From: a virus
Lineage: Duplodnaviria > Heunggongvirae > Uroviricota > Caudoviricetes
Direction: 5' to 3' (one strand)
Virus record (IMG/VR): IMGVR_UViG_2778261179_000011
Length of the DNA: 21,526 nt
Position numbers and translations under genes: made by a program. Below the pieces are notes generated by a model, which saw nothing but the letters and a program-made list of their open reading frames with translations, ran no database searches and had not been told where the DNA came from. Shown here in pieces: positions 458 through 20,710 of this stretch; positions within the stretch are counted from its first letter, which is position 1; each line of letters starts with the position of its first letter.

Positions 458-490
458 CAACTAATTTGCATTCTATTGCTATCGCAAGGG

Positions 491-513
491 AATTTAGCTA
501 GTTTAGCTAAATT
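491..513. promoter_or_regulatory. Perfect 10-bp inverted repeat (AATTTAGCTA-gtt-TAGCTAAATT), candidate operator
   Basis: Read directly from sequence. Lies 30 bp upstream of the ATG at 543 and overlaps an AT-rich -10-like TATAAA at 513-518. Confidence 0.35.
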
Positions 514-542
514 ATAAAAACGAGCCGTAAGCGAACATTCAG

Positions 543-782
543 ATGAACGAGCAAGAAATTTACGCACAAATCAAAAAAGCTCTGCAAGAGGCACCTCGCA
601 ATCAATACACCGCTGAGCTGCATCTGCAAATGATCAAATATGCTGATGAGCTAAAGAACATCACAGCCAAAGAGTTTTGTGAAGGGGTGGGCCTGCGGAG
701 CAGCTTTGGCACCGAATTTAGCAAAATGCGCAATCTGACTCAGCGCTTGAAAGCTGCCGGGCTCGATACAGCCAAGCTATAA
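543..782 (+). CDS. Small hypothetical protein, 79 aa; possible regulator
   Basis: ATG start, preceded by the inverted repeat at 491-513 and followed 52 bp later by hsdM. No family recognised from sequence. Confidence 0.4.
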   Translation: MNEQEIYAQIKKALQEAPRNQYTAELHLQMIKYADELKNITAKEFCEGVGLRSSFGTEFSKMRNLTQRLKAAGLDTAKL

Positions 783-834: not shown

Positions 835-3255
835 ATGGCCATTAAGAAAACCGAACTTTACTCCTCCCTTTGGGCCAGCTGCGATGAGCTGCGTGGCGGT
901 ATGGATGCCAGCCAGTACAAAGACTATGTGCTGACCATGCTGTTTATGAAGTATGTCTCCGATAAGTACAAAGGCGACCCTTACGGCATGATTGTGGTGC
1001 CGCCAGGTGCCAGCTTTGACGATATGGTTGCCTTGAAAGGCGACAAAGAAATCGGCGATAAAATCAATAAAATCATCAGCGCGCTGGCCGAAGAAAACGA
1101 CCTCAAAGGTGTCATCGACGTTGCCGACTTTAACGATGAAGACAAGCTCGGCAAAGGCAAAGAGATGATCGACCGTCTGTCTAAGCTGATCGGTATCTTT
1201 GAAGGGCTAGACCTATCTGCCAACCGCGCCGATGGCGATGACCTACTGGGTGATGCTTACGAATACCTAATGCGCCACTTTGCTACTGAATCGGGTAAAT
1301 CTAAAGGGCAGTTTTATACCCCAGCCGAAGTCTCGCGGATTATGGCGAAAATCATTGGTATTAATGCGCAAACACCACAAGACGCTACGGTCTACGACCC
1401 CACCTGTGGCTCTGGCTCGCTATTGTTAAAAGCCAGTGATGAAGCGCCGCGCGGCTTGTCGATTTTTGGCCAAGAAATGGATAACGCCACCAGTGCCTTG
1501 GCGCGTATGAACATGATCCTGCACAACAACGCCACCGCCAAAATCTGGAAAGGCAACACCATTGCTGACCCGCAATGGAAAGAGGCAAACGGCCAACTTA
1601 AGACTTTTGATTTCGCCGTGGCCAACCCGCCGTTTTCCAACAAAAACTGGACCAGCGGCATTAACCCGAACGACGACGAATTTGGCCGTTTCAGTTGGGG
1701 CATTCCACCCGAGAAAAACGGCGACTACACCTTTTTACTGCACATCATTAAAAGCCTAAAAAGCACCGGTAAAGGCGCGGTCATTCTGCCTCACGGCGTT
1801 TTGTTCCGTGGCAACGCCGAAGCGCGCATTCGTGAAAACCTGATTAAACAAGGCTACATCAAAGGCATTATCGGTTTGCCGGCCAACCTGTTTTATGGCA
1901 CCGGCATTCCTGCCTGTATTATCGTGATTGATAAAGAGCACGCGAACGCTCGCAGCGGCATCTTTATGGTCGATGCCAGCAAAGGCTTTGCCAAAGACGG
2001 CAATAAAAACCGCCTGCGCAGCCAAGATATTCATAAAATCGTTGATGTCTTTACCAAGCAGCTAGAACTGCCGCGCTACTCGCGTATGGTGCCACTCAGT
2101 GAAATCGCCGGTAACGACTACAACCTCAATATTCCGCGTTATATCGACTCCAGCGAACCGGAAGACCTGCACGATTTAAGCGCCCATCTGCAAGGCGGCA
2201 TTCCAAACCGCGATATTGATGCTTTAGAGCGTTACTGGCAGGTGTTCCCGAGTATTCGCGCCTCCTTGTTTGAGCCTGCCCGTGAAGGTTACAGCAAAGC
2301 CTTGGTCAAAGCCTCCGAGGTGAAAAGCACCATCCTGAACCATGACGAGTTCAAAACCTTCGCCGCACAAAGCTTAATACCCTTTACAGAATGGGCGCAG
2401 CGTTCAAACCTCCACGCCATAGCGCAAGATGAACCGCCAAAACAGATTATTCATCGTATCAGCGAAGACCTGTTACAAAGCTATGCGCAAACGCCACTGC
2501 TGAGTAAATACGATATTTACCAGATCCTGATGGATTACTGGGCGGAGTCAATGCAAGACGATGTGTACGTGCTAGTGCAAGACGGCTGGCCAGCAGGCAA
2601 AGTGCTGCGTGAGTTAGTCGTCAAAAAAGGCGAAAAACTGAAAGAATCGCCCGATTTAGTGATTGGCAAAGCCAAATACAAAGCCGAACTCATTCCTCCG
2701 GCGTTGATCGTCGCGCGCTTTTTTGCCGCCGAACAAGTCAAAGTCGATACGCTGCAATCGCTATTGGATAGCGCCAGCCAAGAGCTTGAAACCTACCTTG
2801 AAGAAAACTCGGGTGAAGACGGTTTACTAAACGATGCGCTGAACGACAAAGACAAAGTCACCAAAGCCACAGTCACGGCACGTTTAAAACTCGCCACCGA
2901 CTCAGATGAAAAAGCCGCGCTAAAACAAGCCAAAAAGCTGTTTGATGCTGAGGGTGATGCCAAAAAAGCCCTAAAAGACGCGCAAGACGCGCTCGATTTA
3001 GCGGTGTTTAAGCAATACCCCCAACTCAGCATCGATGAGATCAAATCCATGATTGTGGACGATAAATGGCTGGCAACACTTGAACGTAATATCGTTGCTG
3101 AAATCGAGCGCGTTACCCAGCAACTGGCCAATCGTGTCAAGGAGCTGGAAGAGCGTTATAGCGAGCCACTGCCTGCTCTTACCCAATCAGTAGAAAACTT
3201 GAGCGATAAAGTCGCAGGTCACTTAAAAGCTATGGGCTTGGAGTGGACGGTATGA
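835..3255 (+). CDS. hsdM: Type I restriction-modification system, N6-adenine DNA methyltransferase subunit HsdM (806 aa, long C-terminal extension)
   Basis: Strong RBS (AAGGAA) before the ATG. Motif I DPTCGSGSLL (about 1396-1425), catalytic motif IV NPPF (1624-1635), GQFYTPAEV motif. Extra C-terminal ~280 aa is K/E/A-rich and coiled-coil-like. Confidence 0.9.
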   Translation: MAIKKTELYSSLWASCDELRGGMDASQYKDYVLTMLFMKYVSDKYKGDPYGMIVVPPGASFDDMVALKGDKEIGDKINKIISALAEENDLKGVIDVADFNDEDKLGKGKEMIDRLSKLIGIFEGLDLSANRADGDDLLGDAYEYLMRHFATESGKSKGQFYTPAEVSRIMAKIIGINAQTPQDATVYDPTCGSGSLLLKASDEAPRGLSIFGQEMDNATSALARMNMILHNNATAKIWKGNTIADPQWKEANGQLKTFDFAVANPPFSNKNWTSGINPNDDEFGRFSWGIPPEKNGDYTFLLHIIKSLKSTGKGAVILPHGVLFRGNAEARIRENLIKQGYIKGIIGLPANLFYGTGIPACIIVIDKEHANARSGIFMVDASKGFAKDGNKNRLRSQDIHKIVDVFTKQLELPRYSRMVPLSEIAGNDYNLNIPRYIDSSEPEDLHDLSAHLQGGIPNRDIDALERYWQVFPSIRASLFEPAREGYSKALVKASEVKSTILNHDEFKTFAAQSLIPFTEWAQRSNLHAIAQDEPPKQIIHRISEDLLQSYAQTPLLSKYDIYQILMDYWAESMQDDVYVLVQDGWPAGKVLRELVVKKGEKLKESPDLVIGKAKYKAELIPPALIVARFFAAEQVKVDTLQSLLDSASQELETYLEENSGEDGLLNDALNDKDKVTKATVTARLKLATDSDEKAALKQAKKLFDAEGDAKKALKDAQDALDLAVFKQYPQLSIDEIKSMIVDDKWLATLERNIVAEIERVTQQLANRVKELEERYSEPLPALTQSVENLSDKVAGHLKAMGLEWTV

Positions 3256-4643
3256 CAAATTTTTCGGGAAAACCTCTTTCTCCAAAAACAGGGAACGCCG
3301 CTTGCGGCAGCCCGCAGGGCGGAGGCAGGGATAGCCGACGTAATGGAGTGGCGGAAGTGAGTTCGACATATCTAGCGGAAATGGCTTCGCCCACAGTTCC
3401 CGTTGGATTTAAGCCAACAGAAGTTGGGGTGATTCCTGAAAATTGGGAAGTAATTCAACTTGGTGATTGCACATCTTATGTTGGATCGGGGAAAACTAAT
3501 ACGAAATCCAGAGGTGAATACCCCCTATATGGCTCGACTGGCTTAATTGGAAGTTGCGAAAGACCTGAATACTCTGGTGAAGCGTTGCTAGTTGCGCGTG
3601 TTGGTGCAAATGCTGGAAGGTTGAATTATGTTTGTGGTGAATATGGTGTTTCGGATAACACAATATTAGTTAAAACTAAGCCAGAACATAGCATTGATTA
3701 CTTAAAATATTGGTTGATACGAAAAAATCTAAACACTCTAGTTTTTGGGTCAGGTCAGCCGCTCATAACAGGAACACAACTTAAAGAATTGGCTCTGCCT
3801 CTCCCATCGAAGACAGAACAAGCCGCCATTGCCAATGCCCTATCCGATGTCGATGCGCTGATCGGCGAGCAGGAAAAACTGATCGCCAAAAAACAGGCCA
3901 TCAAAACCGCCACCATGCAACAACTCCTCACCGGCCGCACCCGCCTGCCGCAGTTCGCCCTGCGTGAAGATGGCACGCCCAAAGGCACCAAGCCAAGTGA
4001 ATTGGGCGAAATACCTGAGGATTGGGAGGTTGTGGAGTTTGGCTGCACATTGAAGGAATTTCGAAATGGGTATGCTTTCTCGGCAAATGGATACTCCTCT
4101 ACTGGAACACCAATCATTACTATGGCTCAAATTGGACTTTCAGGCTCATTTCAGTTTGATATCTCCAAGGTGAATAAATGGGATTCGGAACAACAGGATT
4201 CGCTTAAGGAGTTTTGGGTTCGAGACGGTGATCTCCTAATAGCGATGACTGATGTGACTCCAGATAAAAATCTTATCGGTCAAATGACAATCGCTAAGTT
4301 AGGTGGTATAGCACTTCTAAACCAACGCGTTGGCTTGCTTCGGCTTAAAAATGAAATTGCTTATACGGGATACTTTAGTTTTCTGAGCTGTTTGCCTGTT
4401 TGGAAAACATATTGTAAGGGTGTTGCTTCGTTAGGGGTGCAGGCAAATATCGGTACGTCAGATATCAGAAAAGCAAAGGTGCCGCTCCCATCCATAAAAG
4501 AACAAACCGCCATTGCCTCTATCCTCTCCAATATGGACGCAGAGATTCAGGCGCTGGAACAACGCCTTGGCAAAACCCGCCAAATCAAACAAGGCATGAT
4601 GCAAGAACTGCTCACGGGTAAAACACGGCTGCCAATCACGTAA
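3252..4643 (+). CDS. hsdS: Type I restriction-modification specificity subunit HsdS (two target-recognition domains)
   Basis: ATG at 3252 overlaps the hsdM stop (ATGA). Two TRD starts (VIPENWEVIQLGD; EIPEDWEVVEFG) and two conserved repeats ending LLTG(R/K)TRLP. Start is uncertain: the first ~42 codons are low-complexity and GC-rich, and ATG at 3378 (MASPTVPVGF...) is an alternative. Confidence 0.85.
   Translation: MTNFSGKPLSPKTGNAACGSPQGGGRDSRRNGVAEVSSTYLAEMASPTVPVGFKPTEVGVIPENWEVIQLGDCTSYVGSGKTNTKSRGEYPLYGSTGLIGSCERPEYSGEALLVARVGANAGRLNYVCGEYGVSDNTILVKTKPEHSIDYLKYWLIRKNLNTLVFGSGQPLITGTQLKELALPLPSKTEQAAIANALSDVDALIGEQEKLIAKKQAIKTATMQQLLTGRTRLPQFALREDGTPKGTKPSELGEIPEDWEVVEFGCTLKEFRNGYAFSANGYSSTGTPIITMAQIGLSGSFQFDISKVNKWDSEQQDSLKEFWVRDGDLLIAMTDVTPDKNLIGQMTIAKLGGIALLNQRVGLLRLKNEIAYTGYFSFLSCLPVWKTYCKGVASLGVQANIGTSDIRKAKVPLPSIKEQTAIASILSNMDAEIQALEQRLGKTRQIKQGMMQELLTGKTRLPIT
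3809..3950 (+). repeat. HsdS central conserved repeat (direct repeat copy 1)
   Basis: Encodes TEQAAIANALSDVDALIGEQEKLIAKKQAIKTATMQQLLTGRTRLP; clearly related at the protein and DNA level to copy 2 at about 4494-4634. Confidence 0.7.
4494..4634 (+). repeat. HsdS C-terminal conserved repeat (direct repeat copy 2)
   Basis: Encodes KEQTAIASILSNMDAEIQALEQRLGKTRQIKQGMMQELLTGKTRLP; direct repeat of the 3809-3950 segment, flanking TRD2. Confidence 0.7.
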
Positions 4644-4653: not shown

Positions 4654-6072
4654 ATGTCACCAGACACCTCCACACATAGGCTGCATGAGCAAGTTAAATC
4701 GGTTTATCAGCTCCTGAGCGAGCCACAGCTGCATATTCCTAACTACCAGCGCCCATACAAATGGACAGCAGACAACCTCCAAGCGCTACTCACCGATTTA
4801 CGCAACTACCGCGATAAATCGGCGTATCGCTTGGGTACGGTGGTGTTTCATCACAACTCAGAGCATTTGGATATTGTTGATGGCCAACAACGCACCCTAA
4901 CCTTAATGCTACTGGTTAAAGCCATTGCTGAACACATGCAGGAGCATAAAGACTTAATCCAGCGCAAAGACTTAAGCGAGCAAATAGCCGAACTGGTTAC
5001 CAATATTGATGCTTTTTTAAGCACACAACCCGACAGCCCCCACAGCGGCATCACCCATACCAACCTTTATCAAAACTACCAAGCGGCTAAGCGGGCAGTG
5101 GCACAGCCTGAGTTTGGCGAAGCAGATATTGCGTTTTTACTGCATAAATGCCAAGTCGTCACCTTTGTGTTGAATGATATTTCTGAGGCGTTTCAGTTTT
5201 TTGACTCACAAAACAGCCGTGGCCGCGACTTAAACCCGCACGACTTACTCAAGGCCTATCATTTACGCGAGTTTCCCGAGCATGAAGCGGCACTCAAAGC
5301 CGAAGCCGTTAAAGACTGGGAAAGCCAAAAAAGCCACGAACTAGCCAGGGTATTTGCCCACTACCTGTATCGCATTCGCCACTGGGTTAATAACCAGCAG
5401 GCCCACTACTTTAGCAAAGACGATATTGGGCTATTTAAGGGCGTGAATCTGTATCAGGCAGCCCATTATCCTTACACCCAAGCGCTGCGCATTCAGCACG
5501 AGCAGGTGGATAACTACAATAATCACTTTCAGCGCAAGCTAGACCAAAACACGCTGGCGTTTCCGTTTCAGCTCGATCAAATCGTAATTAATGGGCGGCG
5601 CTTTTTTGAAATGATTGCGCACTACCAAGCGCTGATTAACAGCCTAACCGGCGAGGCATTAACCAAACAGTCCAGCATTCCTTTATCAGACCGTGCACAG
5701 CAGATTCTTAACGCGCTCAATAGCTATGGGGCACGGCATCGAACGGGCGATCGTTATATCCGCATGCTGTTTGACTGTGCGCTGCTGTATTACTTCGATA
5801 AATTTGGCAAAGAGCAACTATCAGAAGCGATCGAAAAGTTTTTCATCTGGGCCTATAGCTGCCGCTTAACCAGCCACGCTGTGTATATCGAAACCATGGA
5901 TAACCACGCCCGCAACAGCAAACTGTTTAAATTAATCCAGTCCGCCATTAGCCCAAAACAAGTACTGGCGCTGCCTTTAAAAACCCTCACCCCCGCTGAT
6001 CTCAAGGCAAGTAAGATGGGCGATTTGGTTAAGCTATTCGAAGGAATGAAATACTATGTCGAATCCAAATAA
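4654..6072 (+). CDS. DUF262 (ParB/Srx-like nuclease fold) protein, 472 aa, GmrS-like; no recognisable HNH C-terminus
   Basis: RBS AAGGA 8 nt upstream. N-terminal ...IPNYQRPYKW... and DGQQR motif (4879-4893), both hallmarks of DUF262. Starts 10 bp after the hsdS stop. Confidence 0.75.
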   Translation: MSPDTSTHRLHEQVKSVYQLLSEPQLHIPNYQRPYKWTADNLQALLTDLRNYRDKSAYRLGTVVFHHNSEHLDIVDGQQRTLTLMLLVKAIAEHMQEHKDLIQRKDLSEQIAELVTNIDAFLSTQPDSPHSGITHTNLYQNYQAAKRAVAQPEFGEADIAFLLHKCQVVTFVLNDISEAFQFFDSQNSRGRDLNPHDLLKAYHLREFPEHEAALKAEAVKDWESQKSHELARVFAHYLYRIRHWVNNQQAHYFSKDDIGLFKGVNLYQAAHYPYTQALRIQHEQVDNYNNHFQRKLDQNTLAFPFQLDQIVINGRRFFEMIAHYQALINSLTGEALTKQSSIPLSDRAQQILNALNSYGARHRTGDRYIRMLFDCALLYYFDKFGKEQLSEAIEKFFIWAYSCRLTSHAVYIETMDNHARNSKLFKLIQSAISPKQVLALPLKTLTPADLKASKMGDLVKLFEGMKYYVESK

Positions 6073-8086
6073 GATAACGAGCTTTTCCATTAGGCAGCTG
6101 TTAGCAGATCACGCCTCCTATCAGATCCCTATGTATCAGCGTAACTATGCGTGGGAAAAAGGCGAAATTGATCAGCTGATTCAGGATGTTGTTGATTATC
6201 AAGTCCAAAAAAAGCCTTACTACATCGGCAGCTTAGTGGTGTATCCACGGGATAATCAGCTATTTGAAGTGATTGACGGCCAGCAACGCTTTACCACGCT
6301 CACGCTAATTGCTTTATGTTTGAAGCACTTCAGCATGTTGGCTGAAAAAGAAGGGACAACGTCTGTTAATAAAGTTGACATGAGTTGGTATCAAACGCCT
6401 AATTTATGCTTTGAAAGCCGCGCTAACTCAACCCTCACCCTTGAAAAAATAACAGCCTTTAGCGCCTCTACTGCTAAGCATTTGTCACTAGATCCAGCCG
6501 ATATTAATCAGTGCAACAGCGCTATTTTAAATGGCTTTAACTTGGTGCAGCAGGCGTTATCTGAGCTTGCTAAACAGCATGACCTACATCAGTTTTGTGA
6601 GTACTTATTTGATTGGGTAAAAATCACCCGCGTCCCCGTTCCCCACGACACTGATTTAACCCATTACTTTGAGGCGATGAATAATCGCGGGGAACAGCTA
6701 GAAAAACACGAAGTGCTAAAAGCCAGAATGCTCTCTGTGCTGCAAGATGCCAGCCACCAACACCCTGAGAATAAAAGCGCGCAGGAAGTGCTCAATAAAG
6801 TGTGGAATGCCTGCGCCAATATGGAGCGTTATGTGCAGTTTGGCTTTAACCCCATCGAGCGCCAGCAGATCTTTGGCAATGAGTGGCAAAAATTTACCGC
6901 TAACAGCTTTACTGAGCTTCATCACGCGCTAATAGCCCCTGAAAACAGAGCAGCCAACACCACAGTCGACACTCATAGTGATGAGCCAGCCGCCAAATCA
7001 CTGGCTGAAATGTTGAACACACCTTATACCGATAAACAGGCAGAAACAGATAAAAATCAACCATCGCCTGAACGCTTTAACAGCGTGATTAATTTTTCTA
7101 ACTTTTTATTGCAGGTCTTAAGGGTTTACAGCCAAAAAGACATTTCTTTGGACGATAAGCAGTTAATTGATCAGTTCGAAACGCATATTTTGCACGCAGA
7201 CGAGGCAGCAGAAAAAGTTAAAGCGTTTGTGTTTGCCTTATTAAAATCCAAATACCTATTTGATCACTACGTGATAAAACGCGATGCGACGGCTCAGGAC
7301 AAGTGGGGCATCAAGCAATTAAAACGCTATGAGCGCAATAGCCAAAGCTACGTCAATACCTTTGCCCAAAACGATCAGCCTGATACCACTCACTCGCAAT
7401 TAAATCAGCGCATTGTTTTATTACTAAGCGCCTTTCATGTCTCTACGCCCACCATGAACTACAAGCACTGGTTAACCGGCGTTTTGCATATCCTGCATCA
7501 ACTGCACGCCAAGCAACTCGATGCAGACAACTATTTAAAGGCACTCGAAAAGCTCGCCAGAAGCTTTATCTATGGGCGTTATTTGGCTAAAACAGCGGCT
7601 GATTATTACACACTGATTTTTGATAACCCGAAGGACTATCAACCCTTAGCGGACACGTGTTTTTTACGGTGTCGCTTGCGCTATGGTTCGATTAAAAACA
7701 ACTTTGTATTTAACTATTTAGATTATTTGCTGTGGTGCACCACCCAAGATAAGGACCTGGTGTATCGTGAGTTTGAATTTAGTTTTAGAAGCTCGGTCGA
7801 GCATTTCTACCCACAAGATCCCTACTCTGGCGAACCATTAGAGGATGGGCCTTTGCATAGTTTTGGTAACCTATGCCTAATTAGCCACAGCAAAAACTCT
7901 AAGCTCAGCAACTACCAACCCACGGCTAAAAAAGAGCACTTTCAAGCAGCCAGCACCCAAGGCAAAATCGACTCACTCAAGCTGTATGAAATGACTCGGG
8001 TTAAAGTATGGGATGCAGATGCTATCCACAAGCATGAAACCCAAATGCTGGGATTGTTTATTAAGGATTCTGAGGGAGAAAAATGA
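6056..8086 (+). CDS. DUF262 + DUF1524 (His-Me finger/HNH-like) protein, 676 aa; GmrSD-like putative modification-dependent (Type IV-like) restriction endonuclease
   Basis: N-terminal ...IPMYQRNYAW... with DGQQR (6275-6289). C-terminal SVEHFYPQ...GNLCLISHSKNSKLSN (about 7793-7915), typical of the DUF1524 nuclease module. Overlaps the previous gene by 17 bp and hsdR by 4 bp. Confidence 0.75.
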   Translation: MSNPNKITSFSIRQLLADHASYQIPMYQRNYAWEKGEIDQLIQDVVDYQVQKKPYYIGSLVVYPRDNQLFEVIDGQQRFTTLTLIALCLKHFSMLAEKEGTTSVNKVDMSWYQTPNLCFESRANSTLTLEKITAFSASTAKHLSLDPADINQCNSAILNGFNLVQQALSELAKQHDLHQFCEYLFDWVKITRVPVPHDTDLTHYFEAMNNRGEQLEKHEVLKARMLSVLQDASHQHPENKSAQEVLNKVWNACANMERYVQFGFNPIERQQIFGNEWQKFTANSFTELHHALIAPENRAANTTVDTHSDEPAAKSLAEMLNTPYTDKQAETDKNQPSPERFNSVINFSNFLLQVLRVYSQKDISLDDKQLIDQFETHILHADEAAEKVKAFVFALLKSKYLFDHYVIKRDATAQDKWGIKQLKRYERNSQSYVNTFAQNDQPDTTHSQLNQRIVLLLSAFHVSTPTMNYKHWLTGVLHILHQLHAKQLDADNYLKALEKLARSFIYGRYLAKTAADYYTLIFDNPKDYQPLADTCFLRCRLRYGSIKNNFVFNYLDYLLWCTTQDKDLVYREFEFSFRSSVEHFYPQDPYSGEPLEDGPLHSFGNLCLISHSKNSKLSNYQPTAKKEHFQAASTQGKIDSLKLYEMTRVKVWDADAIHKHETQMLGLFIKDSEGEK

Positions 8087-11000
8087 GTAACGTCGGCCAG
8101 CGTGAACGCATGACCCAACAGCGCATTGTTGAGCTGTTTCAAACGGATTTAGGCTACCGCTATTTAGGTAACTGGGAATACCGCGATAACAATAAAAACA
8201 TAGAAGTTGAGCTACTAACGAGCTGGCTGAAAAAGCGCGGCATAAGCGAGGCGCTGATTAATCGCGTGATTCGTCAGCTAGACAGCGCAGCGGCGCTGGG
8301 CGAAGGTAAAAAGCTCTATTACGCCAACAAAGAGGTTTATCGCCTGCTGCGTTACGGCGTGAAAGATAAAGAAGGTGCTGGCCATCTTAATGAAACCGTG
8401 TGGCTGATTGACTGGAAAAATCCAGAAGCAAACGATTTTGCCATTGCCGAAGAAGTCTCTATCAAGGGTGAAAACAAAAAATGCCCAGACATAGTGCTGT
8501 ATGTCAATGGTATCGCTCTAGGTGTGATTGAGCTGAAACGCTCTTCGGTGTCTGTCTCTGAGGGTATTCGCCAGAACCTCGATAACCAAAAGAAAGATTT
8601 TATCCGTAACTTCTTCACCACCATGCAATTGGTGATGGCGGGTAACGACACGCAAGGCTTGCGTTACGGCACGATTGAAACCCCGGAGAAGTATTATCTT
8701 GAATGGAAAGAAGAGATAGAGAACGGGTATAGCCATAAGCTCGACTTTCACCTGAGCCGCGTATGCAATAAAGCGCGTTTTTTACAGATCATCCACGATT
8801 TTATTGTTTTCGATGCGGGTATTAAAAAGACCTGTCGTCACAATCAGTTCTTTGGTATTGAAGCGGCAAAACGCCATATCGCAAGGCGTGAAGGCGGCAT
8901 TATTTGGCATACGCAAGGTTCTGGCAAAAGCCTCACTATGGTGTGGTTGGCCAAATGGATACGTGAAAATGTCAAAGACGCCCGTGTATTGATCGTGACC
9001 GATCGTACCGAGCTGGATGAGCAGATAGAAAAAGTATTCACCGGTGTTGAGGAAGATATTTATCGCACCAAAAGCGGTGCCGATTTGGTGGCGACGCTCA
9101 ATCAGCCCAACCCTTGGTTGGTATGCTCTTTAGTCCATAAATTTGGTCGGCAGTCTGATTCGGAAAACGATACCGCGACGGATGAGTTTATTGCCGAGTT
9201 AAAGAAATCCCTACCATCGGACTTTAAAGCCAAAGGCGACCTATTCGTATTTGTTGATGAATGCCACCGTACTCAATCGGGCAAGTTGCACGAAGCGATG
9301 AAGTCCATTCTGCCAGAAGCCATGTTTGTCGGCTTCACCGGCACCCCCTTGATGAAGAAAGACAAGAAAAAATCGGTTGAGGTATTTGGCCCTTACATTC
9401 ACACCTATAAGTTTGATGAAGCTGTGGCCGATGGCGTTGTGCTCGATTTACGCTACGAAGCACGAGACATCGACCAAAATGTCACGTCGCAGAAAAAGGT
9501 CGATGAATGGTTTGAAGCCAAAACTCGCGGCTTATCTCGATTAGCGAAAACCCAGTTGAAACAGAAATGGGGCACCATGCAAAAGGTGCTGTCCAGTAAA
9601 TCGCGTTTGCAGCAGATTGTGAATGATATCTTGCTGGATATGGACACTAAGCCACGCCTGATGGATGGCTACGGCAATGCCATGTTGGTCTGCTCTAGTG
9701 TCTATCAAGCTTGTAAAGCTTATGAAATGTTCAGCCAAACAGATTTAGCCGGCAAGGTGGCTATTGTCACCAGTTTTCAGCCGACCGCTGCGAGCATTAA
9801 AGGGGAAGAAACCGGTGAAGGCTTAACGGAAAAGCTCTTTAAGTACGATATTTACCGCAAAATGCTTGCGGATTACTTCGAGCAACCGGAAGACAAGGCC
9901 GCTAACCGAGTTGAAGAGTTTGAAAAAGAAGTTAAAAAACAATTTATTGATGAGCCAGGGCAAATGCGCTTGCTCATCGTGGTCGATAAGTTGCTGACTG
10001 GCTTCGACGCCCCTTCGGCTACCTATTTGTATATCGACAAACAGATGGCTGATCACAATCTGTTTCAGGCCATTTGCCGCGTGAACCGCTTGGATGGCGA
10101 TGATAAAGAATACGGTTACATCATTGACTACAAAGATCTGTTCCGCTCGTTGGATAAAGCGATTTCTGATTATACTCAAGGCGCATTTGATGGTTATGAC
10201 AAGGAAGACGTTGCAGGGCTGCTGAAAGATCGTTTAGAGCAAGCCAAGCTCGATTTGGATAATGCGCTGGAAATGGTGCGCGCCTTGTGTGAGCCGGTAA
10301 AAGCGCCACGCAACACGGAAGACTACATTTATTATTTTTGTGGTAAGTCAGGTCTGAACCAAGACGAGCTCACCGAGAAAGAAGCACTGCGTTTAACGCT
10401 TTATCAGAACGTTGCCAAACTGCTGCGTGCGTTCGCCAATATCGCCAATGAAATGCCTGATGCAGGCTATTCTGCGCAAGATGTAGACTCGATAAGAACA
10501 GAAGTGGCTCATTTTGAAAAAGTCCGTGACGAAGTAAAACTGGCCAGTGGCGATTTGGTAGAAATGAAACGCTTTGAGCCTGCGATGCGCCATTTGTTAG
10601 ATATGTATATTCGTGCGGATGACAGCGAAGTACTGATGGATTTTGAAGAGCTGGGGCTTATTGAGCTCATTGTCGAAAAAGGCGCTGATGCCGTGGAGGC
10701 TTTGCCTGATAGTATTCGCAAGAATCAGGAAGCCATGGCCGAAACCATCGAAAATAACGTGCGTAAAACCATCGTTGATGAAAACCCGGTTAACCCCAAG
10801 TATTACGAGCAAATGTCGGTGTTATTGGATGAGCTGATTGAGCTTCGTCGCCAAAAAGCGATTGAATATCAAGAGTATTTGGAAAAAATCCGCGAGCTGT
10901 CTCGTAAGGTTATACGTCCGGAGCAGACAGCGGCTAACTATCCGCCATCGATGGACTCTAATCCAAAACGCGCGTTTTACGATAATTTTGGTCAAGATGA

Positions 11001-11175
11001 ATTGCTGGCTACCAAAATAGATAGTGCCATTCGTTATACCAAAAAAGCGGATTGGGTCGGAGATCGCTTTAAGGAGCGAGAAATTGCCAATGCGGTGCGA
11101 GAAGAAACGACGGGGTATGAGGTGGATATTCAGGGTGTAATGGAATTGGCAAAAGCGCAAAAAGAGTACCATTGA
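8083..11175 (+). CDS. hsdR: Type I restriction enzyme endonuclease/translocase subunit HsdR (1030 aa)
   Basis: N-terminal PD-(D/E)xK nuclease motif (PDIVLYVNGIALGVIELK). SF2 helicase motifs: Walker A HTQGSGKSLT (about 8911-8940), motif II FVDECHR (about 9253-9273), motif III FTGTP. ATGA overlap with the upstream gene. Confidence 0.9.
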   Translation: MSNVGQRERMTQQRIVELFQTDLGYRYLGNWEYRDNNKNIEVELLTSWLKKRGISEALINRVIRQLDSAAALGEGKKLYYANKEVYRLLRYGVKDKEGAGHLNETVWLIDWKNPEANDFAIAEEVSIKGENKKCPDIVLYVNGIALGVIELKRSSVSVSEGIRQNLDNQKKDFIRNFFTTMQLVMAGNDTQGLRYGTIETPEKYYLEWKEEIENGYSHKLDFHLSRVCNKARFLQIIHDFIVFDAGIKKTCRHNQFFGIEAAKRHIARREGGIIWHTQGSGKSLTMVWLAKWIRENVKDARVLIVTDRTELDEQIEKVFTGVEEDIYRTKSGADLVATLNQPNPWLVCSLVHKFGRQSDSENDTATDEFIAELKKSLPSDFKAKGDLFVFVDECHRTQSGKLHEAMKSILPEAMFVGFTGTPLMKKDKKKSVEVFGPYIHTYKFDEAVADGVVLDLRYEARDIDQNVTSQKKVDEWFEAKTRGLSRLAKTQLKQKWGTMQKVLSSKSRLQQIVNDILLDMDTKPRLMDGYGNAMLVCSSVYQACKAYEMFSQTDLAGKVAIVTSFQPTAASIKGEETGEGLTEKLFKYDIYRKMLADYFEQPEDKAANRVEEFEKEVKKQFIDEPGQMRLLIVVDKLLTGFDAPSATYLYIDKQMADHNLFQAICRVNRLDGDDKEYGYIIDYKDLFRSLDKAISDYTQGAFDGYDKEDVAGLLKDRLEQAKLDLDNALEMVRALCEPVKAPRNTEDYIYYFCGKSGLNQDELTEKEALRLTLYQNVAKLLRAFANIANEMPDAGYSAQDVDSIRTEVAHFEKVRDEVKLASGDLVEMKRFEPAMRHLLDMYIRADDSEVLMDFEELGLIELIVEKGADAVEALPDSIRKNQEAMAETIENNVRKTIVDENPVNPKYYEQMSVLLDELIELRRQKAIEYQEYLEKIRELSRKVIRPEQTAANYPPSMDSNPKRAFYDNFGQDELLATKIDSAIRYTKKADWVGDRFKEREIANAVREETTGYEVDIQGVMELAKAQKEYH

Positions 11176-11888
11176 TGCCTAAGGTAGAAATTGGTTCTAT
11201 TGCGATGCAGTTAAATCGTAAGGCAATTAAAAACCTTCATATCAGCGTGTTGCCACCTGATGGGCGTGTGCGTGTTTCTGCTCCTGAATCTATGACAGAA
11301 ACCGCAATCCGTATGGCAGTGATCAGCCGCATTCCTTGGATCAAGAAACAGCAGAGTGTTTTTGCCAAACAACCTCGCCAATCTGATCGAGCAATGGTTA
11401 GCGGTGAATGTCATTACCTGTGGGGCAGGCGTTATCGTCTGAATCTTATCGAGCGTTCCGGAAAGCATGAAATCAAGCTAGGTCGTGGTCGATTGCATTT
11501 ATATGTCAATCCCGCAACAACGCTTGAGAACAAGGCACTGGTACTGAACTCATATTATCGAGATGCACTTAAAACGCGAATCGCTGAGTTATTGCCTGTT
11601 TGGGAAGATAAGATCGGCGTTAAAGCTGTAGATTGGGGAATTAAAAAGATGAAAACCAAGTGGGGCAGCTGCAATATTCAGGCAAAGCGCATTTGGCTAA
11701 ATTTAGAGCTTGCTAAAAAGCCACCGGAGTGTTTGGAGTACATCCTAGTGCATGAATTGGTGCACTTGCTTGAGCGTAATCACAATGAACGCTTCAAGGG
11801 GTATATGGACAAGCTACTTCCCGATTGGCGAGAGCGCAGAGATTTGTTGAATCGGATGCCCTTGGCGCACAACGATTGGGTGTACTAG
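11175..11888 (+). CDS. M48-family / YgjP-like (DUF45) zinc-dependent hydrolase, ~237 aa
   Basis: HExxH zinc-binding motif HELVHLLE (11751-11774) preceded by WGSC. ATG at 11175 overlaps the hsdR stop (TGATG); the track ORF starts 3 nt earlier at TTG 11172. This family is commonly found directly downstream of hsdR. Confidence 0.75.
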   Translation: MPKVEIGSIAMQLNRKAIKNLHISVLPPDGRVRVSAPESMTETAIRMAVISRIPWIKKQQSVFAKQPRQSDRAMVSGECHYLWGRRYRLNLIERSGKHEIKLGRGRLHLYVNPATTLENKALVLNSYYRDALKTRIAELLPVWEDKIGVKAVDWGIKKMKTKWGSCNIQAKRIWLNLELAKKPPECLEYILVHELVHLLERNHNERFKGYMDKLLPDWRERRDLLNRMPLAHNDWVY

Positions 11889-12284
11889 GAAAATTATGCA
11901 GAGTTTGCATGGTTAGCCTGATTATGTATGTGGCGCGTAATTTGAGATAAACTTGATAGTAAAAGCGGGAAATGGATTTCATTTCTCCGATATTTTGCTC
12001 AGGTGCTGTCGCTAAAAGTGTCAAGATTCTATCTTTACGCTTGGCGGCCAATACTCCCGCAGTACCTACCCAGAAAATAGCCAATATTGGGATCAACTTA
12101 ACAGTTTTGGCTTTGTTTATTATAAAAACCAGCACTTTCAATTAGTTGAATGGTTTATTCGCTAGTTTATGTGAACTACCGTTCTAACGAATAGAACACC
12201 CCGAGATATTGCTTTCGCTGGTGGGAAAACATTCCTAACCAACCTGAAGGCGCAATACATCAGTTTTTAAGCAGAGAAAAGACT

Positions 12285-13079
12285 ATGACAGCACAAAATA
12301 CTAAAACAATTCAATACCGCCTGCGTAATGGCCAGAGTGTCGAAGTGACCATCAATAATGATGGTGTACCTGGCGAAAAGGTTTCTATCTCTGATCTGGC
12401 TATCGAAAAAACCATCATGTGCCACCTTGGCTTTACTGAAGAAGTGAGCAAAAAGCATGGTGTAGCTATCTGGCGCACAATGGATACTGGAATGCGCAGA
12501 TTCATTACTGCTCGTACCCCTGGTATGACCATGATGGACCTCATACAGATTGCGCCGCTGTTTGAGTGTGAACCTTTGGATGTATTCAGCAATCCAGCTA
12601 TCTGCCAGCAGTTATATGGTGAGATGAAACTCGCGGTTACCCCCATTGTGCTGCATGAAGGATCGCTTGCTGGCGTATGGAAAGTAGAGCGAATTTCAAG
12701 CTACATGCCATTCCACATCCATGTCAACGGCGTAATCGCAGGTGAAAATCAACCTGTTTCAGTTACAAAGTCAGACCTCAATCGCGCAATTCTTGAAGCA
12801 AGTTGTCGAGTTATCGGCCTGGGCAAACAGTCTTATGTTTCCTTCCCGGCTGGTCCTGAAGGCCCGGCAGAAATTCTGATTATGGATGCCGATCTGCTCT
12901 GGCAAATACAGTTTCTGATTGGCAAAAGCATCATCCGCGCTGAAGAACTCGATCAGTACATTACCTGCACGATGACGGATGAAGTCAAAAGTGTGGCTAT
13001 AGCCAATGCCCGGAAGCTATGTCGTGCTGCATTAACAGAACTGCAAGAAAACACCACGGAAGAAGTGGAAAGCGATTAA
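12285..13079 (+). CDS. Hypothetical protein, 264 aa, function unknown
   Basis: Clean ATG ORF after a ~400-bp AT-rich intergenic region; ends 3 bp before a strong hairpin terminator. No motif recognised. Confidence 0.5.
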   Translation: MTAQNTKTIQYRLRNGQSVEVTINNDGVPGEKVSISDLAIEKTIMCHLGFTEEVSKKHGVAIWRTMDTGMRRFITARTPGMTMMDLIQIAPLFECEPLDVFSNPAICQQLYGEMKLAVTPIVLHEGSLAGVWKVERISSYMPFHIHVNGVIAGENQPVSVTKSDLNRAILEASCRVIGLGKQSYVSFPAGPEGPAEILIMDADLLWQIQFLIGKSIIRAEELDQYITCTMTDEVKSVAIANARKLCRAALTELQENTTEEVESD

Positions 13080-13081
13080 AA

Positions 13082-13105
13082 AAAATCCCGCCGATTGGCG
13101 GGATT
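13082..13105. terminator. Bidirectional rho-independent terminator (10-bp perfect stem AAATCCCGCC / GGCGGGATTT, 4-nt loop)
   Basis: Read directly from sequence. Minus-strand orientation is followed by a U-run of 8 or more (A-run 13076-13084 on plus); plus-strand orientation by TTTCTTC. Sits between convergent genes 12285-13079 (+) and 13109-13426 (-). Confidence 0.65.
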
Positions 13106-13108
13106 TCT

Positions 13109-13426
13109 TCAATATACGATCTGGTCTACATGATCCCCAAAATCATCGTCGTCATCGTCGTCGTCCTCATCGCCACCCTCTACTGCTGGCCAATCAACAA
13201 ACCAGCCAGCGTAAAGATGCAGCGTTCGGAGAACATCACTTGCGGGAGCATCAAGGGTGTTAACGAATCCCATATAGCTATTGGGATTTGCCCCAGCTAT
13301 GGCTTCAGCGATCATGTCCTCGGTAATGTCACCGGAGATAATGCTTAAACGCCCGGAAACTTCTTCATTATCATCAAATTCGATAATGGCATCTCCGCCT
13401 AATGGCGCTGCGATTTTAATCTGCAT
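13109..13426 (-). CDS. Highly acidic small protein, 105 aa, with a D8 tract (DEDDDDDDDDFGD); last gene of the dar-like operon
   Basis: About 26 Asp/Glu against about 3 Lys/Arg. Poly-Asp encoded by a (GAY)n run at 13142-13171. Overlaps the upstream 995-aa gene by 11 bp. Confidence 0.5.
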   Translation of the reverse strand: MQIKIAAPLGGDAIIEFDDNEEVSGRLSIISGDITEDMIAEAIAGANPNSYMGFVNTLDAPASDVLRTLHLYAGWFVDWPAVEGGDEDDDDDDDDFGDHVDQIVY

Positions 13427-16403
13427 TATTTAGCTCCTTTGCCACACCTAATAACAGTTCCAGCAATCCGTCACCATTCATCAGTGATGCGGCAGCGGCC
13501 TCTTTGTCATGATACAACTGAAGAGCCATAGAGAATACTTCCGTTGCTGACGTTTTGGAAATAGTCGGGGATTTCTGCCGAATTTTCCCAGTGTTACTTA
13601 CTGAGGCTGGCGGGTATACCTTCGCCATATAAATATTACTCAATCGAGATCTGAAGCACCATTCAGGCTTGCCACGCCCACCGATATTAACGAAAGATGG
13701 CTTATCCCCTTCAACATTGGCCTTCAGGAATGACCGGGCTTTCTCTAACAAACCAGGGTTACTGTACTCAAGATGATGACCCAGCTCGTGCCACAGTGCA
13801 CTTGCATTTTCATCGTTCAAATTGACAGCAACAACACCATTAAGATTTGCATATGCCCTTCCCTGGTGGTGAACCACCTTTGATAAGGTCGAAATTTTAC
13901 CGCCGGTCAGGCGATAAATATCAGCAAGTTCCTTGCGCAGGTCTATCCCACCATTCTGTCCAGCGCGGGCTTCTTCCACTTCTTCCGTGATAAAAGAGTC
14001 GGCCCACTCAAGAGCTTTTTCTTCAGATACGGATGAGTTGGCGATCGCACTGTTCATGGCAGATAACACTTTCTCGTGGACCGAACCCATACTTCGCTGA
14101 TTCATTTGCCAGCGTGTCTGCGGGTTATATGAGAATCGCTTAAGTAGTTGGTCAAGCTGCTCAAGTTCTTCTTCACTGACATACTTTTTAGCCTCACCAA
14201 TAATGCCAGGGAGAATATTGCCGTTAGGATTAAACGCTCGCGAAAGGAAGAGTTTCAGCGCCCCCATGCCCTCCGATGCTTCAATATCACCAATAACCCG
14301 GTTAACAATGGCCGCACTCTTCGGATTAGCATCCGCCAACGCTCTGGCTACGATTTGCAGGGACGATACGACCTCACGCTGCATATCAGTCCTGATCTCA
14401 TCAATAAACTCTGGCGTTATGCCGTGCTCTTTAAGGATATCCCTGCCTTCCGCCGTTACCCCATCGATATCACCGACATGTTTATTAACCTGACTTTGCA
14501 ATGCCTTAAATGCCTTCAGAATTCCACGGGCATCATCAGCTTTACTAACGGCCTTCCTGAATACTGGCAAGAAGTCAGAGTTAACCTCATTTTGTTGATC
14601 GGCCCACTGAATGGAGGCTTCTTTCATCTCGTCCAGAGTCAGATCACCCAACGCGGTATGGTCTGTGAATATGAGCGACAACCTCTGAACCATTTCTGCC
14701 AATGGTGATGCCGAATGCGCCGCGCTAAGGAATGCTTTCACCCTGGTTGGGCGAATGGAAAACCAGTCAATAGCTGGTGGCATATCTCCGTTTTTTATCG
14801 CCTGCGCTATCTCATCAAAGCCGTCGCGCCCAAGGGAGGATGCGTGATTTAACAATCCGCGAAGTAACGAATTGCTGATACCGAATAATCGGCACCATTT
14901 TTTTACGTCGGCAACAGGCATTCGGACAAAATGCGCAAGCACTTGTACAAGCTGCTCATCCTGGGGATCGGTGCGGGATAGCAGCCTGATCAGATGAATA
15001 ATGTCTTTGATTCCGGATGCCCGATGTAATAGCAAGCTGGTATATGGAGCAACACCGTTGTAACTACCGCCGGAAGCTGACTCGAAAAGACCGCCGGATA
15101 TCCCTTGCATACCTTCGTTTTCCAGTTCCTGAGATACCTGGCGAAGGATATCCTGTAACGACACATCACCGCCGCCAAACATATCCCCGAGCGCCTGGCC
15201 CTGGTGCTGTAACTCATCATTGATACGTTGTGCCATCAACTTAAAGGCGGTGGCCATACGCTTCGCGCTACGGTTATTCGCGACGATAAACAACGCGAGT
15301 GCTTTCACTTCCGGGGCCGTTTCGCTGAACATATCCCCCTGAGCAATAACATCGGTAATATGTTGGCCTGACTCCTTCGATTGCCTTACCAGGTCTACCG
15401 CATCTTTCAATGCAGCCAGCGCCTTTTTATCGAGGCTATCCGCTGTTTCAATGCTATCAACGATAGTTGTCACAGCCTGCTTGTGCGCTTCTCCTGATAA
15501 AGCCTGCATCTGGACAAAATCATTGGCCGCCGCATTAAGCGCCGTCAGAACATTACGCATATCCGGATCAGGTTCTTCTGCAACCATCCTTACCAAGCGC
15601 GCATCCTTATATGCCTTGGCAAAGATCGCGTTTTGTATCCGGTCAACAAGTTGCCGTGTTGGTCGCCCATCTTCAGTTACAAGTCCAGCCGCCTGTGTGG
15701 CACCAACTTGCGTCATAAATCCGCGAATAAACGCGTCATTACTGCGGCTAAGCAGATCTCCGCTTTCTGACGGGTTAAAAAGCGCCATCATCGCCGGTGT
15801 TATGCTGTCGGCATCAACAAAAGCCTTTTCACTGGCTGCCATTTCCTGAAGATCAGAAATATTTGAGTCTTTGGCAAACTGAACGCGGTCAACCTTAGTT
15901 AACCGGCGGCGCACCAGTACCGGAGCCGTCATTGATTCAACCTTTTCAGGACGTATGCCGAATTCGCTCGCATGTTCAATCAGGTACTCCCGATACCGAT
16001 CCGCATTGCCGTCCTGATAGGCTTTAATGATCCCCATGGTTCGTCCATTACCTGACTCAACGGCATTGTCCTCACCAATTATCGGCGCTCCATGGCTGGA
16101 TAAACCGGAGTCGGTAAGCTGAGCAGGCCGCAAATCCTTGGATATCTGGTTAACCTGAAGAATACTGGATGCGCGGGTCCGGTCGCGCGGCTGAAGTTCC
16201 TGGGGATAGTCCGGATTAATTTTCCCGTCCAGAGTATTGGATACCAAAAGAGCTGAGGCATCGACGATATCAAACGCTGTTTTTACCTCGTCTCCCTTCG
16301 CTGTCACCACATACGAAACCCGCCCATAATCGGGCAGGTTCTTTAGCAGCTCGATCAGCGTTTCTATGCTGGTGGCCATTACCACCTGATCGCTTAAGCT
16401 CAT
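13416..16403 (-). CDS. ddrB: DdrB-like large protein, 995 aa, with an HExxH zincin motif near the C-terminus
   Basis: ATG start. HELGHH encoded at 13773-13790 (verified by reverse-complementing the DNA). Size and position after the ddrA-like and darA-like genes match the P1 darA operon as I recall it. Confidence 0.6.
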   Translation of the reverse strand: MSLSDQVVMATSIETLIELLKNLPDYGRVSYVVTAKGDEVKTAFDIVDASALLVSNTLDGKINPDYPQELQPRDRTRASSILQVNQISKDLRPAQLTDSGLSSHGAPIIGEDNAVESGNGRTMGIIKAYQDGNADRYREYLIEHASEFGIRPEKVESMTAPVLVRRRLTKVDRVQFAKDSNISDLQEMAASEKAFVDADSITPAMMALFNPSESGDLLSRSNDAFIRGFMTQVGATQAAGLVTEDGRPTRQLVDRIQNAIFAKAYKDARLVRMVAEEPDPDMRNVLTALNAAANDFVQMQALSGEAHKQAVTTIVDSIETADSLDKKALAALKDAVDLVRQSKESGQHITDVIAQGDMFSETAPEVKALALFIVANNRSAKRMATAFKLMAQRINDELQHQGQALGDMFGGGDVSLQDILRQVSQELENEGMQGISGGLFESASGGSYNGVAPYTSLLLHRASGIKDIIHLIRLLSRTDPQDEQLVQVLAHFVRMPVADVKKWCRLFGISNSLLRGLLNHASSLGRDGFDEIAQAIKNGDMPPAIDWFSIRPTRVKAFLSAAHSASPLAEMVQRLSLIFTDHTALGDLTLDEMKEASIQWADQQNEVNSDFLPVFRKAVSKADDARGILKAFKALQSQVNKHVGDIDGVTAEGRDILKEHGITPEFIDEIRTDMQREVVSSLQIVARALADANPKSAAIVNRVIGDIEASEGMGALKLFLSRAFNPNGNILPGIIGEAKKYVSEEELEQLDQLLKRFSYNPQTRWQMNQRSMGSVHEKVLSAMNSAIANSSVSEEKALEWADSFITEEVEEARAGQNGGIDLRKELADIYRLTGGKISTLSKVVHHQGRAYANLNGVVAVNLNDENASALWHELGHHLEYSNPGLLEKARSFLKANVEGDKPSFVNIGGRGKPEWCFRSRLSNIYMAKVYPPASVSNTGKIRQKSPTISKTSATEVFSMALQLYHDKEAAAASLMNGDGLLELLLGVAKELNNAD

Positions 16404-16415
16404 CCCTGTTACGCC

Positions 16416-16781
16416 TTATGCTGCCTCTTTAATGTTGGCGGCTATCCATGCCGCCGTGTGCTGTTTAACCTGGTCCAGGTCGATGTATGTGCCAACATAT
16501 TGACTCAAGTCCTGCAAGGTACCGATAAATGCATCTGTGCTCTGATCGACGAATTTATCAGCCAGGAAATCAGCAACCAGTTTTGGCACACCATCATGTT
16601 CCGAAGGTTGTTTTTCATCGCCACTACCACCGCCGGACGCGCCGTACCCCATCTGTTGCATGATCTGGTCAATTTCATCGCTGATATCCAGCAACTCCAT
16701 GCCACTCGCGGTGGCCGCTTTGGACATCAGAGCATCCAACTTATCGCTGAGATCCATTAACTCAATAGCTGATAGTGTCAT
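16416..16781 (-). CDS. ddrA: DdrA-like small acidic protein, 121 aa
   Basis: ATG overlaps the stop of the upstream 639-aa gene (ATGA). Called by size and operon position only. Confidence 0.5.
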   Translation of the reverse strand: MTLSAIELMDLSDKLDALMSKAATASGMELLDISDEIDQIMQQMGYGASGGGSGDEKQPSEHDGVPKLVADFLADKFVDQSTDAFIGTLQDLSQYVGTYIDLDQVKQHTAAWIAANIKEAA

Positions 16782-18697: not shown

Positions 18698-18698
18698 G

Positions 18699-19310
18699 TT
18701 AATTTCCTGCTTTCAGTTGCTTAAGACGGCGTTTGAGTTCGCCATTTCGGGCCTTTTCGTTATTGAGTCGGCCTGTCTCCTTATCCAGCTTCGCCCGCAA
18801 ATCAGTGATCTGCTGTTGATTGAAAGACACCGAGTTCTGCGCTGATTTATAAGCGGCAACCACCTGAGCATTCCGCTGTTTTGCCTCTTGCAGGCGCTGA
18901 AAGTTGGATTTTACTGCCGGTTTCTTGTCTACCGGATTGGCAACACGTTTCGCTTTGGCGATCAGTGATTTCTGGAATTTTGCGGAGTTTTTGCGGGCCG
19001 CTTGCCCCATGACGGTACCAAGCGTCTTGATATCCGGCGACTGAGCGTTAGGAATAGCTTTTCCATTCAGCCTCACAGACGATATATCGCCAGTATCGTT
19101 TACCTGTATGGCAAGAATTTGTCCGTCGTTAAGAACCAGCTTTGCGGTTTTAACTTTAACGCCATCTTTCGTTGTTGCGCGGTTGCTGGAGTCAACCTCA
19201 ATTACCGTAACACCGGTTTTATTGATCGCCGCGATAAGGGATTTCAGCCCCTTTTCATTAACCTGGTCAAAATCGACCGTTGCATACTTATTTTTCGTCA
19301 TCTGACACAT
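18699..19310 (-). CDS. hdf: Hdf-like protein (homologue of DarA fragment), 203 aa
   Basis: Shares the NSAKFQ-containing segment with the 639-aa protein. Its stop TAA abuts the darA-like ATG. Lysine-rich coiled-coil C-terminus. Confidence 0.6.
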   Translation of the reverse strand: MCQMTKNKYATVDFDQVNEKGLKSLIAAINKTGVTVIEVDSSNRATTKDGVKVKTAKLVLNDGQILAIQVNDTGDISSVRLNGKAIPNAQSPDIKTLGTVMGQAARKNSAKFQKSLIAKAKRVANPVDKKPAVKSNFQRLQEAKQRNAQVVAAYKSAQNSVSFNQQQITDLRAKLDKETGRLNNEKARNGELKRRLKQLKAGN

Positions 19311-20057: not shown

Positions 20058-20131
20058 AAGTTCCCTCCTACGTTGTCAGGAGGTAATGGTATGCAAAGTA
20101 ACTTCTCAACCGGTTATGTTGCATAAGAGAC

Positions 20132-20395: not shown

Positions 20396-20466
20396 TTTTT
20401 ACCTATACAACAGTAAGTTGAACAACATTTGAGAACGGTATGCACTTTGTGATTTCCACACACACT

Positions 20467-20485
20467 GGTTTTGTTAATTAAAACC
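20467..20485. promoter_or_regulatory. Inverted repeat GGTTTT-gttaatt-AAAACC in the lyd/dar operon upstream region
   Basis: Read directly from sequence; 6-bp arms, 7-nt AT-rich spacer, about 70 bp upstream of the 87-aa gene start. Confidence 0.25.
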
Positions 20486-20691: not shown

Positions 20692-20710
20692 CCCTAGTCT
20701 CGGACTAGGG
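20692..20710. repeat. Perfect hairpin/palindrome CCCTAGTC-tcg-GACTAGGG
   Basis: Read directly from sequence; 8-bp arms. A related sequence, CCTAGTCTAGGGG, occurs at 110-122. Confidence 0.4.

Follow-up and report, generated by a model that had tools for sequence, protein, structure and literature searches.

A probable RptR repressor and its candidate TAGCTA-repeat operator ahead of a type I restriction-modification island in P1-like phage-plasmid DNA

Introduction

What does a perfect 10-bp inverted repeat do just ahead of a small open reading frame (ORF) that itself lies directly before hsdM? This is the question raised by the left end of the window, by which we mean the whole stretch of 21,526 nucleotides that was analysed. 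The original prediction, made from the sequence alone, was that the repeat and the 79-aa ORF resemble an operator and its controller protein, an arrangement that could time the expression of restriction-modification (R-M) genes when the element enters a new host.

Our comparisons are with RptR, the 'RMS-proximal transcriptional regulator' described by Zhang, Schuller, Ahel, Blower, Exley and Tang (Nucleic Acids Res 2025; PMC12255303). It is encoded by the first gene of RptR-type I RMS-M48 defence islands, which in EPEC E2348/69 is the RRDM island (RptR-RMS-DarTG-M48), and its crystal structure is PDB 9R2Z (PMC12255303). Evidence from SEC, the crystal structure, EMSA and GFP reporters established that the protein is a homodimer, binds the repeats and represses the promoter (PMC12255303). 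The dimer binds three 9-bp direct repeats, TTTAGCTAA, that span 58-31 nt before rptR; a 6-bp palindrome, TAGCTA, held in one major groove, is sufficient as a minimal site, with TAGATA, TATCTA and TATATA tolerated (PMC12255303). The repeats are bound cooperatively, with a Hill coefficient of 3.4 and a KD of about 185 nM; they overlap the functional -10, two adjacent repeats suffice for repression, and in reporters the repression is about 10-fold (PMC12255303). DNA is contacted by T57-K61, with E58 and K61 invariant, and dimerisation involves E25, L65, R68, L69, A72 and L74 (PMC12255303). The promoter is repressed at rest and hsdM is induced about 15-fold on phage infection; over-expression of RptR leads to loss of defence (PMC12255303).

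Two RRDM-type islands from E. coli genomes served for comparison. They are near-identical to the published EPEC island, and their DarG and/or M48 accessions match those in the paper (PMC12255303).

The 79-aa protein

The ORF ends 52 bp before hsdM, as had been claimed; it runs from 543 to 782 and the gap from 783 to 834. Among Pfam domains at E <= 0.1 its translation matched HTH_73 (PF24718, 'HTH-like domain') and nothing else, neither HTH_3 nor any other Xre-type domain. The match has an E-value of 4.4e-32 and covers 70 of the 71 profile positions at residues 2-71. The original prediction had found no helix-turn-helix (HTH) that could be recognised with confidence, and this doubt was justified, as the fold is only HTH-like. 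A search of NCBIfam gave one meaningless match (0.19), and no PADLOC 2023 model covers the protein. Its RefSeq name is 'HTH-like domain-containing protein' (WP_032177719.1), and older annotations call it 'transcription factor'.

HTH prediction and structure modelling had been proposed as checks on the regulator idea. A sequence search of the PDB with phmmer returned a single entry, 9R2Z, 'RptR transcriptional repressor', at E 5e-34. The AlphaFold model (pLDDT 92.3) has helices at residues 3-16, 19-32, 42-49 and 55-71, so that the long C-terminal helix alpha-4 and the four-helix fold are RptR-like in the prediction. With Foldseek, the model superposes on chains A and B of 9R2Z with TM 0.91-0.92 and rmsd 1.1-1.4 Å. 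No other PDB chain had E < 0.7, and no Xre or cI-like structure was among the best 50 matches.

The protein has 58 of 76 residues identical to RptR of the RRDM island, and EPEC-type RptR, also a 79-aa four-helix protein, is 75-76% identical to it. The DNA-contact residues T57, E58, F59, S60 and K61 are all there, in the run G56-T57-E58-F59-S60-K61, as are the dimer residues E25, L65, R68, L69, A72 and L74. Both sets match those of the EPEC protein and are invariant across the aligned homologues (n=28). Residue 24 is alanine in the window protein and valine in the EPEC protein. By sequence and by predicted structure, then, the 79-aa ORF encodes an RptR orthologue, and we refer to it below as rptR. 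That this copy acts as a DNA-binding repressor we infer from the conserved residues, together with the sites and the promoter geometry described below.

Among cluster representatives, RptR-like domains also turn up in longer proteins: P0121, of 191 aa, has two copies, and P0161, of 1060 aa, has one at residues 728-789.

Repeat units and promoter

The features between the upstream ORF and the end of rptR, including the probable promoter, are as follows.

476 to 481, + strand: -35-like hexamer TTGCTA, placed by its alignment with the functional -35 TTGAAC of RRDM-type islands
491 to 513, no strand: 10-3-10 inverted repeat, a by-product of having two palindromic units in tandem
493 to 501, + strand: direct repeat 1, TTTAGCTAG, with a candidate RptR site TAGCTA at 495-500
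499 to 504, + strand: -10-like hexamer TAGTTT, 17 nt after the -35 and spanning the junction of repeats 1 and 2
502 to 510, + strand: direct repeat 2, TTTAGCTAA, the same as the published repeat, with a candidate RptR site TAGCTA at 504-509
511 to 519, + strand: degenerate third repeat, ATTATAAAA, in 9-bp register with repeats 1 and 2
543 to 782, + strand: probable rptR, 79 aa, ATG start, assigned from Pfam HTH_73, the PDB 9R2Z match and the superposition of the model

The inverted repeat is exactly as perfect as had been claimed. Its arms, AATTTAGCTA (491-500) and TAGCTAAATT (504-513), are 100% complementary and are separated by the 3-nt spacer gtt (local sequence gggAATTTAGCTAgttTAGCTAAATTataaaaa). 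By itself such a palindrome is only weakly unusual, because 20% of Markov-1 simulated windows contain at least one perfect inverted repeat of arm 10 and loop 0-10 (mean 0.25 per window); the 21.5-kb window itself contains two, at 491 and at 13083. Repeats of this kind are no great rarity, and the case for a function needs other evidence.

That evidence comes from a finer pattern. A pair of TA[GT][CA]TA hexamers at 9-bp spacing occurs once in the window, at 495-509, where 0.023 were expected. Repeat 1 is the published 9-bp repeat save for position 9 (G for A), and position 9 is one of minor effect (PMC12255303). The two TAGCTA sites lie 48 and 39 nt before the ATG. In the third unit the hexamer is TATAAA (513-518), which lies outside the four accepted RptR hexamers and has one mismatch to the accepted variant TATATA; L008 and L009, the loci from Pseudidiomarina and Aliidiomarina, have their third unit arranged in the same way. 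As in EPEC, TAGCTA sites stand in 9-bp repeats over the -10; EPEC has three repeats, whereas the window has two canonical ones and the degenerate third. Each unit is palindromic and two in tandem inevitably give a longer inverted repeat, which accounts for the 10-3-10 form. The candidate functional unit is thus the two 6-bp TAGCTA palindromes in 9-bp direct-repeat register, not the 10-bp inverted repeat.

A generic sigma-70 scan called no promoter in 458-542, and the promoter was instead placed by alignment to the validated EPEC-type promoter. In this alignment of the window with the RRDM promoter, the -35, the 17-nt spacer, the -10 and the repeats coincide column for column. TAGTTT shares its columns with TAATTT inside the 5' '-10 box' AGCTAATTT of the RRDM promoter, and this box is needed for promoter activity (PMC12255303). 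The -35 differs, being TTGAAC in EPEC and TTGCTA in the window, and it is conserved as TTGC(T/A/G)A in divergent relatives. Against the -10 consensus TAGTTT matches at 3 of 6 positions and is weak. A -10-like element overlapping the repeat had been predicted, and two forms of it are there, TAGTTT and TATAAA (513-518), the second touching the right arm of the inverted repeat; the generic scan called neither. Going by the alignment, the TAGCTA repeats overlap a putative island -10 that corresponds to the experimentally validated -10 of EPEC.

Conservation of sites upstream of rptR

We looked at the regions upstream of rptR in 80 loci from a one-genome-per-species collection (mostly Gammaproteobacteria, some few Alphaproteobacteria and a single Flavobacteriales MAG). 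Across these loci 224 accepted hexamers fall within 100 nt upstream of rptR, and every locus (80/80) has at least one there. At least two sites are present in 77 of the 80 and an exact 9-bp pair in 73. Site density upstream of rptR is 30 times that in the rest of the loci, and the median position of a site is 42 nt before the start codon. Successive sites are 9 bp apart in 127 of 144 cases and 18 bp apart in 8 of the 144.

The 10-3-10 form fares differently as an operator unit. Only 3 of the 80 loci have the window's 23-mer, against 73 with the 9-bp register, and from locus to locus the best palindrome differs widely in arm and loop length (we tallied these with a quick routine of our own, for qualitative use only). 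It is therefore the register of 6-bp units that is conserved and not the hairpin. Six divergent upstream regions that are otherwise unalignable have in common only the -35-like ATTGCnAT and an invariant TTAGCTAAATTAT.

The conserved register of 6-bp units agrees with the promoter survey in the RptR paper, which covered 80 promoters, including those of the Pseudidiomarina aquimaris and Aliidiomarina quisquiliarum homologues (PMC12255303). These two homologues share 99% and 95% identity, respectively, with the protein from the window, and have the same repeat arrangement. The published list of homologues includes proteins 95-99% identical to the window protein (PMC12255303).

The island

In the window, rptR is the first gene, on the same strand, of a type I RMS operon that ends in an M48 peptidase gene. 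Downstream of rptR the island is laid out as follows.

783 to 834, + strand: rptR-hsdM spacer, 52 nt, with a ribosome-binding site AAGGA at 824-828
835 to 3255, + strand: hsdM, 806 aa, with N6_Mtase and HsdM_N domains, 73% identical to RRDM HsdM
3252 to 4643, + strand: hsdS, with two Methylase_S domains, as annotated in RefSeq
4654 to 6072, + strand: embedded DUF262/GmrSD-family gene 1, GmrSD_N with DUF7834
6131 to 8086, + strand: embedded DUF262/GmrSD-family gene 2, GmrSD_N with GmrSD_C
8083 to 11175, + strand: hsdR, 1030 aa, with HSDR_N, SWI2_SNF2 and T1R_D3-like domains, 79% identical to RRDM HsdR
11175 to 11888, + strand: M48/YgjP-like metallopeptidase, the last gene of the island (YgjP-like E 9e-62; 71% to RRDM M48 WP_001122107.1)

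The scan called no + strand promoter and no terminator in the spacer, and its hairpin is weak, has no U-run and has a z-score of -0.29. Since the spacer has a ribosome-binding site and neither a terminator nor a called promoter, the simplest reading is that hsdM is co-transcribed with rptR from the RptR-controlled promoter.

The order rptR, hsdM, hsdS, embedded cargo, hsdR and M48 is that of the EPEC island. The cargo differs: in the RRDM-type islands L087 and L088 DarTG2 fills the slot between hsdS and hsdR, whereas the window has the two DUF262/GmrSD-family genes there (4654-8086), for which PADLOC gives matches to HEC-06, Orf5 and SspE-like. This slot has been suggested as a hotspot for embedded systems (PMC12255303). 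From the sequence comparison, the RptR-HsdM-HsdS-cargo-HsdR-M48 island is orthologous to the published one, with two GmrSD-like genes in place of DarTG2.

Flanks and carrier

The window's island also differs from the EPEC one in its surroundings, being flanked by IS1 and P1-like phage-plasmid DNA. Positions 1-61 are an IS1 end according to BLAST, which led us to reject an ISCR2 end as the identity of this piece. IS1 truncates the neighbouring ORF, which is left at 62-457; its full-length form is a 437-aa 'YopA family protein' with a weak HEPN_Apea match, and this full-length gene lies directly upstream of rptR in L006, L007 and L009. IS1 is 480 nt upstream, and read-through or an outward promoter from it could add transcription that is independent of RptR.

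The E. coli A29 chromosome has a 100% identical copy of positions 1-1500. Its context there does not match the right part of the window, which is P1-like instead: positions from about 12182 to 21526, with tail, holin, recombinase and darA-region genes, match P1-like phage-plasmids at about 98.5%. An IncY plasmid has a near-identical RptR island beside IS1-flanked mrk fimbrial genes. Taken together, the P1-like right part and the copy on the IncY plasmid indicate that the island appears to be carried by a P1-type phage-plasmid.

This right part also contains the window's other perfect 10-bp inverted repeat, at 13083-13106, just after an ORF at 12285-13079. It is of the type AATCCCGCCG attg GCGGGATT, with an A-run before it and a T-run after it, and looks like a bidirectional intrinsic terminator.

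A different mobile setting is seen in some of the other loci. Three tyrosine-recombinase genes in a row, together with a 158-aa gene, immediately precede rptR or the YopA-like gene in L001 (4837-10078), and the three-integrase set is also found in L002-L004, L007, L009, L022, L023 and L033. The arrangement resembles a three-integrase mobile element that carries the RptR island as cargo. We considered whether rptR might be a backbone gene of that element and rejected the idea, as most loci are without those genes within 6 kb.

Regulation of the island and alternative explanations

With the protein, the sites, the promoter and the operon in place, we think it very probable that the 79-aa protein is an RptR orthologue and that the TAGCTA pair is its operator over the island -10, through which rptR and the co-transcribed island genes would be repressed. 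Dimers of RptR would occupy the two TAGCTA units cooperatively, perhaps bridging onto the third unit. Once bound, they would occlude the -10 (TAGTTT, 499-504) and so block RNA polymerase. The resulting negative feedback on rptR and on hsdM, hsdS, the GmrSD-like genes, hsdR and the M48 gene would keep the island low at rest, and removal of RptR, for example during phage infection, would release it. For the locus in the window, the two-plus-one arrangement of the sites, the weak -10 and the nearby IS1 are points that could weaken this reading.

Timing on establishment, the purpose first proposed for the arrangement, is compatible with RptR as a repressor and not exclusive of it. On this account, a naive cell has no RptR, so the promoter fires on entry; the methylase would be made first and HsdR last, and RptR would then shut the operon down. 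Several observations fit. The promoter is under autoregulation from the operon's first gene (PMC12255303), hsdM and hsdS come first with hsdR about 7 kb downstream, and cloning of hsdMSR behind the promoter proved impossible when rptR was absent (PMC12255303). Members of the RptR family with 75-99% identity occur in many genera, a spread that implies frequent transfer, and the phage-plasmid context makes the idea somewhat more attractive. However, negative autoregulation by a co-transcribed first gene does not make hsdR any later than hsdM, the phenotype described in the paper is induction when phage infect, and type I systems already include post-translational restriction alleviation (PMC12255303). 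We regard establishment timing as rather unlikely on balance, while keeping repression by RptR as the explanation of the locus.

Could the inverted repeat instead work as an RNA hairpin, either as the terminator of the upstream YopA-like gene or as a leader structure? It does fold as a 10-bp stem of -8.7 kcal/mol, and the upstream ORF stops 34 nt before it. However, the stem is A+U-rich with no U-run following it, the motif is kept in relatives that lack the upstream gene, and if the -10 is at 499-504 then most of the repeat lies upstream of the transcription start, which is predicted at about 510-512. The geometry of the hairpin is not conserved either, the 6-bp units and their 9-bp register being conserved instead, so we consider this reading very improbable.

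A classical C protein of the Xre family would be another candidate, one that first activates and then represses through a C-box, as in PvuII, AhdI and Esp1396I. C proteins have an Xre-type HTH and bind C-boxes of 15-20 bp across two major grooves; the operator consists of two palindromic boxes of 11-12 bp, typically of the GACT...AGTC type. They usually directly precede the endonuclease gene of a type II system. The ORF in the window is of similar size, sits before R-M genes and has an upstream palindrome, and like C.PvuII, C.AhdI and C.Esp1396I the predicted regulator would be a small dimeric protein encoded with R-M genes and autoregulating through palindromic sites at its own promoter. The authors of the RptR paper themselves call the role of RptR 'akin to' that of C proteins (PMC12255303). 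The details differ, however. The window protein has no Xre-type domain or fold: HTH_73 is its only Pfam domain, and 9R2Z its sole significant structural match in the PDB. The motif GACT / AGTC is absent from 458-542, and the operator units are TAGCTA palindromes of 6 bp, 9 bp apart, each of a kind held in one major groove. The system is of type I, and the gene precedes hsdM, with hsdR 7.3 kb further on. A C protein in the strict sense is accordingly still less credible than a hairpin. What stands of the controller-protein and operator idea is a regulator-operator pair before R-M genes, for which a 76%-identical orthologue provides experimental evidence; its assignment to the C proteins does not hold.

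The least plausible explanation, and to us a negligible one, is that a palindrome lies by chance beside an unrelated small ORF: as many as one in five simulated windows do hold a comparable repeat, but sites recur at least in pairs upstream of the same gene in nearly all loci, across many genera and with 30-fold enrichment, and EMSA and reporter data exist for the EPEC orthologue (PMC12255303).

rptR ahead of other defence systems

Repression by RptR may extend to more than type I systems. The downstream genes of the 80 loci were clustered and representatives were scanned (the rptR match is at about 6001-6237 in most loci). In roughly half of the loci the gene directly downstream of rptR on the same strand is a type I hsdM, and type I systems that begin with hsdR follow rptR in L020, L022, L027, L033, L048 and L056. 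The other neighbours are varied. A TrlF-like ATPase with a Schlafen/AlbA_2 gene is downstream of rptR in 17 loci. Gabija (GajA and GajB) is found in L019, L021 and L050, Hma (HmaA, 2236 bits) in L068 and L085, a methyl-directed type II restriction enzyme in L059-L061, a type III mod/res pair in L084, Abi_2 in L058 and an Hsp70-like pair in L010, L011 and L014. A GmrSD_N gene with a type IIG-like methylase is also among the genes downstream of rptR. The RptR paper stressed type I RMS and mentioned non-RMS neighbours with function unassigned, among them the AAA-ATPase and Schlafen/AlbA_2 pair (PMC12255303).

Some loci carry 5' remnants of hsdM between rptR and the other system (L005 at 3346-3590, L013 at about 6391, L016 at about 5550 and L025 at about 6279). 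These remnants are 54-301 codons long and 84-93% identical to the window HsdM, and suggest that the cargo was swapped by recombination just downstream of rptR.

Repressor genes that head varied defence operons and are derepressed on infection are also seen in BrxR/CapW, the WYL repressors, and in CapH/CapP. Those systems have a ligand-sensing WYL domain or a partner protease. RptR differs from BrxR/CapW in being a single 79-aa HTH_73 domain with no WYL domain or sensor.

Significance

As a discovery this locus is of small importance, since a paper of July 2025 had already described the repressor and its structure, where it binds, how it is conserved and how it is linked with type I R-M (PMC12255303). 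For annotation it has a use: by orthology, the protein before hsdM can be named RptR and positions 493-519 can be marked as its probable operator. The GmrSD-family genes in the DarTG2 slot and the location of the island in P1-like phage-plasmid DNA are a modest extension. So is the observation that rptR heads a wider range of defence systems than was emphasised before, which leaves the published picture unchanged (PMC12255303). We tentatively suggest, as a possibility that falls short of being the likelier one, that rptR with its TAGCTA-repeat promoter is a portable, system-agnostic control cassette, and that on a P1-type phage-plasmid it might also serve as an establishment switch.
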